A stretch of DNA of 64,000 nt from Desulfovibrionaceae bacterium (GCA_031553655.1 JAVBLG010000032.1:115-64114), one strand, 5' to 3'; counted from the first letter of the stretch, positions 12,310-40,253 are shown. A program made the numbers and translations. Notes: generated by a model not told the origin, from the sequence alone.

Positions 12310-12366
12310 ACAGTATAGTCACAAGTAAGCGCTTTTTCGTTTCCGGCGGCGTCATTTGTCCACCGC

Positions 12367-12410
12367 GACGGAGTCAGCCGGCGGAGGGAGCTGACTGTGG
12401 ATTGAAACAT
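12367..12410 (-). repeat. 44-nt hairpin repeat, copy A (CRISPR type I-C repeat-like solitary unit)
   Basis: The reverse complement is ATGTTTCAATCCACAGTCAGCTCCCTCCGCCGGCTGACTCCGTC. The same 17-nt head and a hairpin occur at 14977 and 37611. Confidence 0.8.
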
Positions 12411-12479: not shown

Positions 12480-14048
12480 ATGAAAAAAAGACTGTTTCTC
12501 TCCATTTTTATTTTACAGTGTATCCTTATAATGTCCACAGGCGTGCCGTCTCAGGCCGCGCCCGTACCTTTCGCATCCAATCTTTTCCAGGGTAACTTTT
12601 CCAATGTCCAGAAAAACGAGGCTTCCGTTCTGGAACCGGGCGACCGGGTGGTGCTGCGCCTGTGGGGCGGCTCCGTGAGCTTTGACGGTTCGCTGGTGGT
12701 AAGTGCCGACGGCAAATTGGCCTCCACCCCGGAAGGTAACCTTCCGTCCGAGCTGGAAAATATGCCCGTGTCCGGGCTGCCTCACGACAAGCTGGCCGAC
12801 GCCCTCAAAAGCAGGCTTTCCGCCAGAGGCGTCAGCGACACGCAAATTTACGTGGCGCCCCTGGACGGCAGGCCCGTGGCCGTGTTCATAACCGGCGGAG
12901 TGCAAAAGCCCGGCCGCTACTCCGGGCTGCCTTCCGATTCCATTCTCACTCTTCTGGACAAGGCCGGAGGTATTGACCCCAAACGTGGATCTTATCGCTC
13001 CATCCGCCTTTTGCGCGACGAAAACGAAGTGGCTTCCTTTGATCTTTACCCCTTCGCCCGCACCGGCGCGATCAAGTGGACGCGCCTGCATGACAACGAT
13101 ACTTTGGTGGTGAGCGAGCGCGGTCCGGTTGTGGAGGCCGGGGGCGAAGCGCGCAATTCCGCTTTTTTTGAGTTCCGCAAAGGCGAAGCAACGGGCAAAG
13201 CCCTGCTGGATCTGGCCGAACCCTACAAAAAAGCCTCACATGTTTCTCTCTCCGGAACACGGAACGGCGCGCCCTACAACACCTATCTGCCCATAAGCTC
13301 ATTTGCCGGGCTGACTCTTGAGGATGGCGATCGTGTAACCTTCATGGCCGACGCTCCCGGCAACACAATTATGGTACAGGTAAGCGGCGCGGTGCGTGGC
13401 GCATCAAACTTTCCGGTGCGGCGCGGAGCCAAATTGAGTGACGTGCGCCGCTATATCGCAGTTGAGCCGGGCCGGGCCAATCTTGAGGCCATCTATATCA
13501 AACGTAAAAGCGTGGCCGAACGCCAGAAAAAAGCCCTGGACGACGCCCTGCGACGCCTGGAGCAAAGCGCCTTCACCGCCACCTCGTCCAGCACCGAAGA
13601 ATCGCAAATTCGCGCCAACGAGGCCAACATGCTGTCAAAATTCGTGGAACGGGCCAAAGCCGTGGAACCCGAGGGCGTGGTTGTGGTGGGCAAGTCCGAC
13701 CTGGCTCTGGAAAATGGCGACGTGATCGTGGTTCCGGAAAAAAGCGATGTGGTGCTGGTGAGCGGCGAAGTGCTGGTGCCCCAGGCCATGGTGTGGAATA
13801 AAAAGAAGGATTTTGACGATTATGTGAAGGGCGCGGGCGGCTATTCCAATCGGGCCGACAAGTCCGTAAGCCTGATCGTACGCCAGAACGGCGAAGTGCT
13901 GCGCTCGAACGACGGCGACATCATGCCAGGCGACCAGCTGTTGATCATGCCCAAGGTGGAATCTAAAAGCATGCAAACAGTCAAGGACGTAGCCCAGGTT
14001 TTATTTCAGGTGGCTGTGTCCGCCCGCATGGTGCTTGGTTTGCCTTAG
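12480..14048 (+). CDS. Periplasmic polysaccharide export protein (Wza/Poly_export + SLBB repeats)
   Basis: Signal peptide, PGDRVVLRLWG export motif, and repeated soluble-ligand-binding beta-grasp-like segments. Confidence 0.8.
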   Translation: MKKRLFLSIFILQCILIMSTGVPSQAAPVPFASNLFQGNFSNVQKNEASVLEPGDRVVLRLWGGSVSFDGSLVVSADGKLASTPEGNLPSELENMPVSGLPHDKLADALKSRLSARGVSDTQIYVAPLDGRPVAVFITGGVQKPGRYSGLPSDSILTLLDKAGGIDPKRGSYRSIRLLRDENEVASFDLYPFARTGAIKWTRLHDNDTLVVSERGPVVEAGGEARNSAFFEFRKGEATGKALLDLAEPYKKASHVSLSGTRNGAPYNTYLPISSFAGLTLEDGDRVTFMADAPGNTIMVQVSGAVRGASNFPVRRGAKLSDVRRYIAVEPGRANLEAIYIKRKSVAERQKKALDDALRRLEQSAFTATSSSTEESQIRANEANMLSKFVERAKAVEPEGVVVVGKSDLALENGDVIVVPEKSDVVLVSGEVLVPQAMVWNKKKDFDDYVKGAGGYSNRADKSVSLIVRQNGEVLRSNDGDIMPGDQLLIMPKVESKSMQTVKDVAQVLFQVAVSARMVLGLP

Positions 14049-14055
14049 ATACTGT

Positions 14056-14964
14056 CTAGGCACTACCAGGAGTCTTGGAGGTGCTCTTTATCGGGTGGAA
14101 AATGCCGGTCGCTATGCGAATAAATGCTTTGGCGGCCGGAGATGCCCGTCGTTCGTCAACCACCGCCAGAGCCACATCGCGCGATGCCGGGGGATTCAAC
14201 GGTCTTATAACACAGCGAGGGTCAAGTTCTCGCGGCAACGCGGACCCGTTCAAAATGGTAACAGCGTCGCCGCGCGCCACTGTGGCTATGGTGTCGGCCA
14301 GCTGCGAGGTGCGATAGCGTACATTTGGTTTCAGCCTTGCGGCCTGAAATAAATTCAAAATAAATTCTTCGGAGCCGGACTTGGTTATTGCGAAAGAGCC
14401 GGCGCACAAATCTTTCAGTGAAACTGAACTATGACTGGCCAGGGGGTGGTTGGCGGGAATCAGCGCCAGCAGTTGATTTTTGATCAGCGGAAAGGTGGAA
14501 AGCAGCTCGTTAGGCAGCGTTACAAACCCCACATCAATATGGTAATCCGTCAACCACTGGATTACTTCTTTATCCGACCCTTCGTCCACGTATATTTCAA
14601 TATCGGGAAAATATTTACGGTATTTGTCCAGGATGGCGGGCAGCAGTCGTAATGAGGAAGTGGGGCCGAAAGAACCTATGCGCAGGGTTCCCTTTTTTAT
14701 TCCTCTGGAGTCGGAAGCTTCCTGGCGCATATATTCGGCCAATCCCAGAATGGCCCGAGCCCGTTGCAGCAGCCGCATTCCGATATCAGTGAGTTCCATC
14801 CGCCTTTGATGACGATGGAATAATCCCACGCCAAATTCCTGTTCCAGGGCTTCAATAGCGTGTGATACTCCAGACTCGGAAATATCCGACAGCGAGGCCG
14901 CTGCCGCCGCGAAGTCTCCTCGTTCGGCAACCGCCAAAAAAATTTCAAGCTGCGTCAGCGTCAT
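14056..14964 (-). CDS. LysR-family transcriptional regulator
   Basis: MTLTQLEIFLAVAERGDFAAAAASL...VSHAIEALE HTH, then a LysR substrate-binding domain. Start moved to ATG 14964; the ORF-track N-terminal extension reads through repeat copy B. Confidence 0.88.
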   Translation of the reverse strand: MTLTQLEIFLAVAERGDFAAAAASLSDISESGVSHAIEALEQEFGVGLFHRHQRRMELTDIGMRLLQRARAILGLAEYMRQEASDSRGIKKGTLRIGSFGPTSSLRLLPAILDKYRKYFPDIEIYVDEGSDKEVIQWLTDYHIDVGFVTLPNELLSTFPLIKNQLLALIPANHPLASHSSVSLKDLCAGSFAITKSGSEEFILNLFQAARLKPNVRYRTSQLADTIATVARGDAVTILNGSALPRELDPRCVIRPLNPPASRDVALAVVDERRASPAAKAFIRIATGIFHPIKSTSKTPGSA

Positions 14965-14976
14965 ACCTAACCATCC

Positions 14977-15020
14977 ATGTTTCAATCCACAGTAAGCTCC
15001 ATCCGCAGACTGATTCCGCT
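14977..15020 (+). repeat. 44-nt hairpin repeat, copy B (degenerate stem)
   Basis: ATGTTTCAATCCACAGTAAGCTCCATCCGCAGACTGATTCCGCT. It lies 13 nt upstream of the lysR-type gene start on the opposite strand. Confidence 0.75.
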
Positions 15021-15205
15021 TGCGGCGAATAGGAACCGTACGGGTATTATTATAACTGTTCGCATGCGATGGCAACTTTATATTCCGACTTTGGCGGGCA
15101 CTTGAATGACTCTGCGCCGGATAACGAAAAATTATCGCGCGACAACACTGTCGACGAGATGTTTCATTCGCAATTTTTTCCGGCAAGATAAAAAGTTTAG
15201 GAAAA

Positions 15206-37610: not shown

Positions 37611-37654
37611 ATGTTTCAATCCACAGTCGGCTCCATCCGCCGACTGACTCCGTC
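37611..37654 (+). repeat. 44-nt hairpin repeat, copy C (in rnr 5' leader)
   Basis: ATGTTTCAATCCACAGTCGGCTCCATCCGCCGACTGACTCCGTC with an 8-bp stem CAGTCGGC/GCCGACTG. The ORF track uses its ATG as a false rnr start. Confidence 0.8.
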
Positions 37655-37670
37655 CATAAAGGAAGTTTTG

Positions 37671-40253
37671 ATGAACAAGAAAAAAACTTTCGTTCCCGAG
37701 TCCGGAGAAATCCTTGACTTATTGGTAAAGGCCAACCGCCCGCTGAATCTTGACGATGTGCTGCGTCATTCCGGAGTACAACGCCGGGCCAAAAAGGAGG
37801 TGCAGGAAATTCTGTTCTCTCTGGCCGACAAAGGCGACATACTGCGCTTGCGCGGCGGCGCTTTCATTCCCAAATCCATGGCCAAAACCGTTACCGGACG
37901 CTATTTTGTGCAGCGCTCCGGGGCCGCTTTTGTTACGCCTGATTCCTCCAAAAATCCGCTGGGCGATATTTATATTCATCCGGGTATGGGCGGTGATGCC
38001 TGGCACGGTGACCTTGTGCGGGTGGCCGTTCTGCCCGGACGGCGCGGTAAAAATTCCGAAGGGCGCGTTGTTGAAGTGTTGGAACGCCAGGTTACACAGC
38101 TGGCGGCCCATGTTACGGCAATACACGGCAAGGAATTGATTTGCGCCCCTGCCGACCCTCGCTACGATTTTACTCTGCGTGCCGACGCGGAAGAGGCGGA
38201 GCGGGAAGCAGGCGTATCCGGCCGTTTGCGCCGGGGCGATCTTGTAATTGTGAAGCCGCTGGCCCCTCTTGGCGAAAATTTCTGGCAAGGGATGATTGTG
38301 GCCGGGGTAGGCTCGGAAAACACCGTGGCTGCCCAGGAAATGCTGGTTAAAATCGCCCATCAGGCCCCGACCGAATTTCCACCCGGAGCGCTGGCCGAGG
38401 CTGACGCGCTGCCCGAGAATCCCCGCCCGGAAGATTGGGAAGGGCGGGAGGATTTGCGCTCCATCCCCTTTGTGACCATTGACGGGGCCGATGCCCGCGA
38501 CTTTGACGACGCCGTCTTTGTGCGTAAAGAACAGGGCGGTTTTTTGCTTTATGTGGCCATAGCCGACGTCAGCCACTATGTGCCCGCGCGTTCCGCCCTG
38601 GATAAAGAGGCTTATCTGCGTGGTAATTCCTGGTATTTTCCCAGCTCAGTGGAACCCATGTTGCCCGAGGCTCTTTCCAACGGCCTTTGCAGCTTGAAGC
38701 CCCATGTTCCCCGGCTGGCCGTGGTGGTGGAAATACATTTTGATCAAAATGGCCGCACCCTGAGCAGCCGTTTTTTTCCAACGGTCATATCTTCGGCCGC
38801 TCGGCTTACTTACGAACAGGTAGGCGCTTTTTTAAAGAAAGATGAAACCTTCGGCGTATCCTCATCCGGAGGGACGGAATCCGGACCGGAATCGGCGCCG
38901 CAGACATGGGCGGAGAAATCAGCATCCAGTGGCGATCCGGACGAGCTTCCCCCGGAAATAATGGAAATGCTGCGTGTTGCCGCGCGATTGTCCGCGCTTT
39001 TGAGCGTGAAACGCCGCCGCAAGGGCACTCTGGATTTTGACCTGCCCGAAGCCGAATACGAAATTGATGAACGCGGCGGGCTTGTCGCCATCAAAACGCG
39101 TGAGCGCAACCAGTCCCATCTGCTCATAGAAAATTTTATGATCGCCGCCAATGAAGCCGTGGCTGTTTTTTTGTCCGGGCGCGGGGTTCCATTTTTGTTC
39201 CGTATTCACCCGGAGCCGGACCCGGATCGTATTGAAGACTTTTTTAAAGCCTTGGCCCGTACCGGCCTGTCCGTGCCGGAACAGGTCGGCGGGATGAAGG
39301 ACGAGGGGGTAACGGACAGCGAAACCGGCAACTCGGCAGACGGAAAAACCCCAGACCATCGGATGAAGGGCGGCGGCAAGCAACCGTCAGCATCGGACTT
39401 GCCCATAGTTTTGCGGGCCTTCAAAGGCACGGATCAGGAATTTCTGGTAGGACGCATGGCTTTGCGTTCCATGCCCAAGGCTTTGTATCATCCTTTCAAT
39501 TCCGGGCACTTTGGTCTGGCTTTGCGTGATTACTGCCATTTCACCTCTCCCATCCGGCGTTATGCCGATCTTGTTGTTCATCGCGCGCTTAAATACGCTT
39601 TGGGTTTTGACAGCGTCGCTCCGCCTACGGCCAAGCGGCTGCTGGAAATCGCCGAGCGGATCAACCATTGCGAACTGTCCGCCGCCGAAGCCGAGCGCGA
39701 AATGCTGCGGCGCATGGGCGTTCTGGCGCTTCATAGCCGCGTGGGCGAAAGTTTTTCCGGAACAGTCAGCGGGGTAAACGACTTTGGCATTTTTGTGCTG
39801 CTTGACGAAATGCCCGTGGAGGGCATGGTTCATGTGGAAAACCTTGGCGACGATTTTTATGAATATGATCCGGAAGCCCAGGAACTCATCGGCGTGGGCA
39901 CAGGGCGGCGTTTCAGCCTGGGGCTGAAAGTGGAAACGAGGCTGGCTGGTGTCAATCGGGGGCGGTTGGAAATCAATCTGGAACTGATCGGCGGCGGGAT
40001 TTTCGGCAGGCGGCAAATCAGGGCGGCGGGAGCTTTCGGCAACGGCGGGCGCAACAGGACCGCGAAACGCGGAAGCAGTGAAACAAGCCGAAAAACCGGC
40101 CGCAGCGGAAGCAAAAGCGCAACGCGCCAGGGCGGACGGGCTTCGGGCGAGCCGACTCATGGAAGCCCCAGGCCCGGGTCGGGGAGACCGCGCGTCGGCA
40201 AACCCGGTAAAAGCTCGGGCAATCGTTCCAATCGGGGAAGAAAGGGGTCATGA
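37671..40253 (+). CDS. rnr: Ribonuclease R
   Basis: RNB catalytic domain (VTIDGADARDFDDAV..., HFGLAL..YCHFTSPIRRYADLVVHR), an S1 domain and a Lys/Arg/Gly-rich C-terminal tail. ATG 37671 preferred. Confidence 0.92.
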   Translation: MNKKKTFVPESGEILDLLVKANRPLNLDDVLRHSGVQRRAKKEVQEILFSLADKGDILRLRGGAFIPKSMAKTVTGRYFVQRSGAAFVTPDSSKNPLGDIYIHPGMGGDAWHGDLVRVAVLPGRRGKNSEGRVVEVLERQVTQLAAHVTAIHGKELICAPADPRYDFTLRADAEEAEREAGVSGRLRRGDLVIVKPLAPLGENFWQGMIVAGVGSENTVAAQEMLVKIAHQAPTEFPPGALAEADALPENPRPEDWEGREDLRSIPFVTIDGADARDFDDAVFVRKEQGGFLLYVAIADVSHYVPARSALDKEAYLRGNSWYFPSSVEPMLPEALSNGLCSLKPHVPRLAVVVEIHFDQNGRTLSSRFFPTVISSAARLTYEQVGAFLKKDETFGVSSSGGTESGPESAPQTWAEKSASSGDPDELPPEIMEMLRVAARLSALLSVKRRRKGTLDFDLPEAEYEIDERGGLVAIKTRERNQSHLLIENFMIAANEAVAVFLSGRGVPFLFRIHPEPDPDRIEDFFKALARTGLSVPEQVGGMKDEGVTDSETGNSADGKTPDHRMKGGGKQPSASDLPIVLRAFKGTDQEFLVGRMALRSMPKALYHPFNSGHFGLALRDYCHFTSPIRRYADLVVHRALKYALGFDSVAPPTAKRLLEIAERINHCELSAAEAEREMLRRMGVLALHSRVGESFSGTVSGVNDFGIFVLLDEMPVEGMVHVENLGDDFYEYDPEAQELIGVGTGRRFSLGLKVETRLAGVNRGRLEINLELIGGGIFGRRQIRAAGAFGNGGRNRTAKRGSSETSRKTGRSGSKSATRQGGRASGEPTHGSPRPGSGRPRVGKPGKSSGNRSNRGRKGS

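Follow-up and report, generated by a model that had tools for sequence, protein, structure and literature searches.

The 44-nt hairpin repeat that occurs three times in the window, i.e., the whole stretch of 64,000 nucleotides analysed here (C128:115-64114, from a genome of 3.6 Mb in 134 contigs with 53% G+C), is the 3'-terminal module A of a non-coding mosaic element of about 182 nt, in which the modules follow each other in the order D-C-B-A on the CRISPR-sense strand. This element behaves as a non-autonomous repeat of the REPIN/MITE type. The family is almost certainly a REPIN/MITE-like mosaic that donates translation-start signals and ends in a mimic of the type I-C CRISPR repeat. No earlier description was found in Rfam or by literature text searches, and to that extent the family is new. 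Our best reading of the whole, held tentatively and with a confidence just short of even, is that of a REPIN/MITE-like element carrying a CRISPR-repeat mimic, which Cas5c probably binds or cuts when the tail is free.

In the window, the 17-mer ACTGTGGATTGAAACAT was found exactly at positions 12394-12410 (+), 14977-14993 (-) and 37611-37627 (-), in agreement with the three 44-nt copies and their identical first 17 nt reported in the original prediction (12367-12410, 14977-15020 and 37611-37654). With up to three mismatches there is no fourth match in the 64 kb, the number expected from shuffled sequences being 0.07. Copy A (12355-12410, plus strand) consists of module A only, corresponding to HMM positions 126-182. 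Its hairpin arms, AGTCAGC/GCTGACT, lie at 12372-12378 and 12390-12396, and are followed by the CRISPR-like tail GTGGATTGAAAC at 12397-12408 and by a terminal AT at 12409-12410. This tail is free, with no partner module to pair with, and is sense to the downstream gene, a Wza-like polysaccharide export gene (12480-14048, plus strand; SLBB and Poly_export domains). The gene starts 70 nt 3' of copy A and is co-oriented with its CRISPR-sense strand; a T run (T7) stands approximately 33 nt 3' of the copy. Both the gene and the T run had been pointed out beforehand.

Copy B (14977-15045, minus strand) associates a partial module B with module A (HMM positions 114-182) and has a degenerate stem. It is located in sense orientation in the 5' leader of a gene for a LysR-family regulator (14056-14964, minus strand), the end of its tail, at 14977, preceding the start codon by 12 nt on that strand. 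Copy C (37611-37654, minus strand; module A, HMM positions 139-182) has a perfect 8-bp stem, CAGTCGGC/GCCGACTG; these arms, like those of copy A, had been quoted correctly. It is an A-D deletion form that adjoins the RNase R gene, rnr, and is antisense to it. The module D of copy C (CATAAAGGAAGTTTTGATGA, 37655-37674, plus strand) provides the RBS and the ATG (37671-37673) of RNase R (37671-40253, plus strand; RNB, CSD2 and S1 domains), the gene start being this very ATG. The first ATG in the element, at position 37611, is in frame with RNase R and opens an 880-aa ORF (window 37611-40253). The 20-codon N-terminal extension encoded by the repeat in this ORF is likely spurious, and the true start is likely the module D ATG at 37671.

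Across the genome, the 17-mer search that had been suggested gave 28 exact matches and 66 with up to two mismatches. One of the 66 is a repeat of the true array and 65 are outside arrays; a control with the reversed 17-mer gave zero matches in the genome. When the copies were extended, the consensus reached approximately 182-184 nt, and conservation ends abruptly after ...GAAACAT. On the tail-bearing strand, module D is CATCAAAATTTCCTTTATGGTCTGAAACC. Module C contains a CCCCC/GGGGG hairpin, the invariant TTGAC(A/G) and a small covarying hairpin (CGAC-GAA-GTCG), and module B consists of a second hairpin followed by CAATCCGCACGGCTCCTATCCGCCG. With an nhmmer profile, 100 copies or fragments were recovered in the genome, 17 of them full length, 71 with the A end and 40 with the D end; 95 of the 100 matches are intergenic according to our own codon-usage-based gene call. 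The forms with internal deletions comprise A only, B-A, D-A (window copy C) and D-C. A REP/MITE-like element had been one of the options of the original prediction, which counted against its CRISPR reading a genome devoid of type I-C with dozens to hundreds of copies of a generic REP element. The number, about 100, is indeed REP-like, and the option is upheld by the 65 non-array copies, the 100 nhmmer matches, the mosaic build, the presence in 12 genera and the occurrence on mobile elements.

No Rfam family matched the element at E<=1. Neither an empty site nor a parent IS was found for it; the sole other contig encoding the neighbouring protein, used for the empty-site comparison, stops inside the element. 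The sole Rfam match, a fragment of a group II intron (D1-D4, RF02001, 39.9 bits) cut by the contig end, is on contig C72, where a full-length element lies at a distance of about 430 nt. On contigs C11, C57, C26 and C2, copies of the element are repeatedly adjoined or interrupted by another dispersed repeat (GACGGCCC...GGGCCGTCAGAGCATTTCGCT.ATTTCATTCGCAAAACGC). The consensus is open over 55 codons in the sense of the genes, which was judged to be due to chance (approximately 7%) rather than to a uORF, and a likeness to the DnaA box (TGTGGAT compared with TGTGGATAA, only 7 of 9 positions) was judged coincidental.

Module D reads CATAAAGGAAATTTTGATGA on the opposite strand, and its end carries AAGGAAATTTTGATG, the ATG of which serves as the start codon of unrelated genes. 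In 14 of the 20 perfect D modules, this ATG opens an ORF of at least 115 aa, and the proteins that start there are unrelated (PurC-like, Pta-like, Cmk-like, RfbA-like, RNase R and others). Between 21 and 22 of the 40 D ends coincide exactly with independently called gene starts. The A end is directed towards a co-oriented downstream gene in 50 of 65 copies (77%, p=1.6e-5) and is usually located 0-40 nt from its start. In the copies without D, the start codon follows the A end at a median of 23-24 nt. The A-only copies are co-oriented with the downstream gene in 20 of 24 cases, at a median of 27.5 nt from the start codon, and A-only and B-A copies do not differ significantly in how they are oriented or in how far they stand from gene starts. 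Because both of its ends sit at gene starts, the element can be described as a portable piece of 5' leader.

The CRISPR-sense strand is the G-rich strand (local GC skew) in 67-70% of the copies versus 53-56% of the genes. This agreement hints at an insertion dependent on the replication strand, the bias being moderate only, and the gene-orientation bias of 77% is larger than a replication-strand bias can account for. A consensus scan called no sigma-70 promoter within the element, nor for the plasmid copy described below. The TTGAC(A/G) of module C does not vary between genera but is joined by a poor -10 region, and a promoter inside this module is speculative.

The genome encodes a complete type I-C system, as had been asked of it by the original prediction. 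Contig C95 carries cas3, cas5c (C95:6228-6998, minus strand), cas8c, cas7 (Csd2), cas4, cas1c and cas2, all over the NCBIfam cut-offs, and an array of at least 18 repeats, GTCGCTCCCTCGCGGGAGCGTGGATTGAAAC, which runs off the contig end. Neither of two outcomes that would have spoken against a CRISPR link, a genome devoid of a type I-C system or a genuine repeat with a different tail, was observed: the last 12 nt of the array repeat are GTGGATTGAAAC, the tail of module A, and the statement that this 12-mer forms the 3' end of type I-C repeats proved right for this organism. The probability that a consensus of approximately 180 nt shares a 12-mer by chance with a 32-nt repeat is about 4e-4, the identical register not yet being counted. 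RNAfold predicts for the genuine repeat a 2-nt overhang, a 7-bp stem and a 4-nt loop, then UGGAUUGAAAC, and for the module A consensus an 8-bp stem (CAGUCGGC/GCUGACUG) and a 7-nt loop, then UGGAUUGAAAC(AU). In both, a C-G pair closes the stem and the 3' G immediately precedes the 11-nt handle.

Cas5c substrates are defined by a stem-loop and an 11-nt 3' overhang, and most of the recognition by the Bacillus halodurans enzyme comes from U22-G23-G24, together with the base of the stem and the 3' overhang, rather than from the loop or the 5' overhang (PMC8524198). The Cas5c of the present genome matches that of B. halodurans (4F3M) with 300 bits over 220 residues, and the IYWKP and GKHY motifs are aligned. 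These motifs contain the catalytic Tyr, Lys and His. Module A copies the portion of the repeat published as the Cas5c determinants, namely the hairpin closed by C-G, the 3' G, then UGGAUUGAAAC. Compared with the full repeat of about 32 nt, the stem sequence, the loop and the 5' part differ: the stem of module A has 8 bp and its loop 7 nt, true repeats have a 7-bp stem and a loop of 4-5 nt, and module A lacks their 5' GTCGC. The unit had been said to look like a solitary CRISPR repeat. It is not one, as just the last 12 nt and the hairpin geometry match and the 5' part of the repeat, an array and a leader are all absent. As already noticed in the window, no second repeat lies at spacer distance: a second tail at 48-62 nt was found nowhere in the genome except in the true array on C95.

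Over 34 sequences from many genera, the local hairpin of module A is 91% paired; 14 cells show compensatory double changes, and the closing pair, C35-G58, is invariant. None of 500 shuffles reached the observed score and all slid registers failed. The lineages have their own, compensated stems, such as CAGTCGGC/GCCGACTG, CATCCGGC/GCCGGATG, CAATCGGC/GCCGGTTG and CAGTCGC/GCGACTG. Among the non-Watson-Crick pairs, 64 are G-U and 27 A-C, and the folded strand is therefore the CRISPR-sense strand, which is mostly the sense strand of the downstream gene. Within this genome, the conservation of the tail is no higher than that of the rest of module A. A second fold exists in the copies that possess module B, present at approximately 46 of the 71 A ends. 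There, CAAUCCGCAC...AUCCGCCG pairs with CGGCGGAU...UGUGGAUUG into a B:A hairpin of 27 bp (-43.5 kcal/mol, z=-7.4) in which only AAACAU stays free. Since module B pairs with the tail in these copies, most copies would hide the handle, and a free tail is found in the A-only copies, approximately 24 in this genome including window copies A and C. The long B:A helix also shows compensatory changes. As this is the case for both folds, two mutually exclusive structures are under selection.

The element was searched for in 401 sampled genomes of Desulfovibrionaceae. A pattern containing the tail was found in 32 of them, belonging to 12 of the 72 genera; the 40 nearest sampled relatives of the present genome lack this pattern. 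The named records with the element are gut Desulfovibrio, Bilophila and "Lawsonia" MAGs, which come from termite gut and goat rumen. A covariance model of modules B and A was built without the tail in order to remove circularity, and it detected the element in 33 of the 401 genomes, in 12 genera. In this tail-independent search, the best copies end in (T/C)GTGGATTGAAACAT in every genus, the most divergent included. Cas5c is present in 109 of the 401 genomes: in 18 of the 25 element-bearing genomes (at least three copies by the tail-independent probe) versus 91 of the 376 others (OR 8, p=1.7e-6). A Mantel-Haenszel test stratified by genus gave an OR of 11.7 (p=2e-6), with kinship corrected to the genus level only and many of the genomes being MAGs. 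In the genus g72, the split of the element against Cas5c is 5/5 versus 1/22. Seven of the 25 element-bearing genomes are without Cas5c (G384, G208, G192, G338, G379, G276 and G092), and the element therefore persists without Cas5c. Among these, G384 (99% complete) has 23 copies and neither Cas5c nor an array, and G208 (95% complete) has 41 copies, no Cas5c and five dispersed type I-C mini-arrays.

Some element-like sequences are located close to cas genes. In the present genome, a B-A copy with a degenerate tail (TGTAGGTTGAAAC) lies between cas3 and cas5c (C95:7022-7128, minus strand), 23 nt before the GTG start of cas5c. Six other element-bearing genomes have no such copy at up to 1.5 kb from cas5c. 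A conserved copy in the cas operon was considered as the cause of the association with Cas5c, and was dismissed because only this genome has one. In one relative (G045/G232), an isolated TGTGGATTGAAAA motif without a hairpin is found approximately 95 nt upstream of cas5c and may be a degenerate, repeat-like regulatory remnant.

The element is also carried by mobile DNA. The circular plasmid pRGI00788 (HG796367.1; 2,862 bp), from an uncultured gut bacterium and encoding a Rep3 initiator, possesses a solitary module A (hairpin and UGGAUUGAAAC) at positions 310-352, 54 nt after rep; the similarity stops exactly at GAAAC. Full and partial elements were found in contigs of 62-123 kb predicted to be viral (prophage-like) in IMG/VR. 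In G208, a hybrid locus on contig C108 (minus strand) is composed of element modules B-A, a 31-nt spacer, a genuine type I-C repeat, a 34-nt spacer and a degenerate repeat, so that module A stands at the first-repeat position of a mini-array. The mini-arrays of G208 are three-repeat arrays of type I-C, and similar orphan mini-arrays were seen in G379 and G041. No second hybrid of element and array was found in the 401 genomes, three other candidates having turned out to be ordinary arrays with a C-to-T repeat polymorphism. Genuine type I-C arrays of the relatives G218, G077 and G394 contain blocks of repeats that end in ...GGGGGTGTGGATTGAAAC instead of ...GGGGGCGTGGATTGAAAC. As both occur within one array, the base pair at the Cas5c cleavage site varies.

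Solitary repeat units are called Racr RNAs when they act as RNA anti-CRISPRs, and RacrIC1 was tested and inhibits a type I-C system (PMC10651486, Camara-Wilpert et al. 2023). Module A resembles them in that a single unit outside an array mimics the hairpin and flank of the cognate repeat and matches the subtype of the host; a C-G pair closes its 8-bp stem and GUGGAUUGAAAC comes next, an arrangement also seen in the repeat of the genome itself. Most copies are chromosomal, others are located on a small plasmid and on prophage-like contigs, and the module A of pRGI00788 is a candidate RNA anti-CRISPR of the Racr kind. In contrast to Racr, the mimic is one module of a mosaic repeat of about 182 nt with approximately 100 chromosomal copies, mostly in gene leaders. 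It imitates only the 3' two-thirds of the repeat, and the partner module B can bury the handle in most copies.

We propose that module A, once transcribed with its tail free, would be bound by Cas5c, which would probably cut after the G at the stem base. The substrates would be the approximately 24 A-only copies of this genome, window copies A and C among them, together with the plasmid copy. The copies keeping module B, with their tail buried in the 27-bp hairpin, would more likely act as structures of a REPIN-like or RNase III type. By acting on the free-tail copies, Cas5c could process or occlude the leader of the gene that follows, or Cas5c/Cas7 could be titrated, or both. Module A would in this sense be related to the solitary repeat units (Racr RNAs) of mobile elements, while being chromosomal and present in many copies. 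Such processing is possible in view of the matching recognition determinants, the conservation of the tail and the association with Cas5c, and we credit the binding or cutting of free-tail copies by Cas5c with rather more doubt than belief. A further step, which we regard as unlikely, would be a second, housekeeping role for the type I-C Cas proteins of these gut Desulfovibrionaceae, in which leaders bearing the mimic are cut or covered as a post-transcriptional regulon, or the approximately 100 mimics act as a Racr-like sponge. Dozens of gene leaders would then have received the mimic from the mobile repeat, as a rule 0-40 nt ahead of the start codon, an interval within the reach of a Cascade backbone. 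Cas5c would cleave these mRNAs, or else a Cas5c/Cas7 assembly would form on them. As a sponge, the mimics would tune CRISPR immunity in the manner of Racr. In either case, module B could work as a switch, with the handle hidden or exposed.

The main competing explanation is that the repeat is REPIN/MITE-like and purely selfish or structural, Cas proteins playing no part in it today, which we consider a serious possibility although somewhat below an even chance. The conserved tail would be the terminal recognition site of some ssDNA transposase or recombinase, or part of an inverted repeat. Its agreement with the CRISPR handle would go back to the capture of a repeat end or be due to convergence, the RNA effects, if any, would pass through host RNases (RNase III or E, for instance) or the donated RBS, and element and type I-C would occur together owing to common ancestry or to joint transfer by one and the same mobile element. 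The REP-like copy number, the intergenic location, the deletion variants, the copies in prophage-like contigs and the 20-40 copies that thrive in Cas5c-negative genomes are all expected of such a repeat. Several features moreover fit a REPIN or an IS200/IS605-like single-strand mechanism: the B:A inverted pair, whose very stable hairpin shows compensatory changes; hairpins in subterminal position at both ends of one strand (on the left, H1 at approximately 26 nt from the end, and on the right, the local hairpin at 13 nt); TGTGGTTTGAAAC, a direct repeat similar to the tail, which other genera have at the D end; the CAT present at both ends; and the GC-skew agreement. The CAT is indistinguishable from the element sequence itself and, with regard to a target duplication (ATG/CAT), no consistent remnant RBS was observed in the left flanks of the copies. 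The "solo" forms (CCTTTATGGATTGAAACAT) look like recombination products between two tail motifs. However, the genome contains no intact Y1/RAYT transposase, a PF01797 search having given only a 33.6-bit fragment, and the Y1 loci of six relatives are not flanked by element modules; no TnpA and no transposase linked to the element were found. A selfish repeat also accounts poorly for a 12/12 match in the same register beside a hairpin, for its conservation in 12 genera, for an association with Cas5c that holds within a genus such as g72, for a plasmid that retains only the hairpin and the handle, and for a gene-orientation bias greater than that explicable by the replication strand.

Two further explanations call on the CRISPR system in other ways. 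An interplay with type I-C adaptation at the DNA level is very unlikely in our opinion. Here, Cas1-Cas2(-Cas4) would read module A as an ectopic repeat that seeds or joins mini-arrays, or the type I-C integrase would help the element to spread. The hybrid locus of G208, with B-A in the place of the first repeat, the several dispersed three-repeat mini-arrays of the element-rich genomes G208, G379 and G041, and the association with type I-C suggest it. But this hybrid is the single true one found in 401 genomes, the integration of a spacer would duplicate an A-like unit and no such duplication is seen, the boundary of the element lies 2 nt past the repeat-equivalent end, and target duplications of repeat length are absent. 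Still less credit, to the point of being negligible, is given to crRNA-like regulatory guides of the CreA/CreR/crlRNA type, in which the handle and a flanking "spacer" would guide Cascade to a promoter, or to remnants of decayed arrays. The identity of the handle with that of the cognate crRNA, the approximately 33 nt and T run that follow copy A and the copy 23 nt before cas5c evoke such guides, but the approximately 100 copies have unrelated flanks and no second repeat nearby, and the flank matches its own locus only, where the PAM position is a non-PAM AAC. The CreA/CreR regulators and mini-arrays each occupy one locus, within a cas operon or next to it, and have a spacer matching a promoter (10.1101/2023.03.03.530964; PMC8501985). 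The element shares with them a repeat-like sequence outside an array, which could recruit Cas proteins for a non-defence role, and differs by being dispersed and high-copy, with no spacer logic. Location in or next to a cas locus, which characterises crlRNAs, is not a property of the family: its copies are spread over many contigs, and the lone cas-operon copy has a degenerate tail and is not conserved in the six other genomes.

The family can be compared with known dispersed repeats. With REP/REPIN and the enterobacterial BIME mosaics it shares tens to hundreds of intergenic palindromic units (100 matches, 95 of them intergenic), inverted pairs that form long hairpins such as B:A, mosaic combinations and lineage-specific stems with covariation. 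Unlike REP/REPIN, it has no associated RAYT/Y1 gene, it is longer and made of four modules, one of its ends donates an RBS and a start codon, and its terminal motif is a CRISPR handle. Compared with a MITE, its inverted arms (B/A) are internal on one side. The Correia elements of Neisseria, the BOX/RUP elements of Streptococcus and the MIRUs of Mycobacterium are small, non-autonomous mosaic repeats of leaders and operon spacers, which are co-transcribed, form RNA hairpins and can provide signals for gene expression; the MIRUs extend over start and stop codons of the genes beside them. The element is similarly a small mosaic repeat in leaders, of unrelated sequence and in another host clade, with a 3-nt CAT repeat at both ends. 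None of these is known to have a CRISPR-repeat mimic.

Apart from CRISPR, the element illustrates clearly how a mobile repeat can provide some 20 or more unrelated genes with an RBS and a start codon. Even without a Cas role it matters for annotation: it breaks assemblies, it creates false N-terminal extensions (an ORF of 880 aa rather than 860 aa for RNase R) and its copies can pass for orphan CRISPR repeats. Solitary CRISPR-repeat mimics are known as single loci, Racr on phages and plasmids (PMC10651486) and CreA/CreR beside cas genes (PMC8501985). A chromosomal, high-copy and horizontally spreading family with such a mimic would be a new route of interaction between CRISPR and selfish repeats. 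Conservation of the mimic extends over 12 genera, its occurrence is statistically associated with that of Cas5c, and the resemblance may link a dispersed repeat family to the CRISPR machinery. This could mean that host mRNAs are processed by Cas5c, that the genome bears an anti-CRISPR-like RNA sponge, or that the end of a CRISPR repeat was borrowed by a mobile element.
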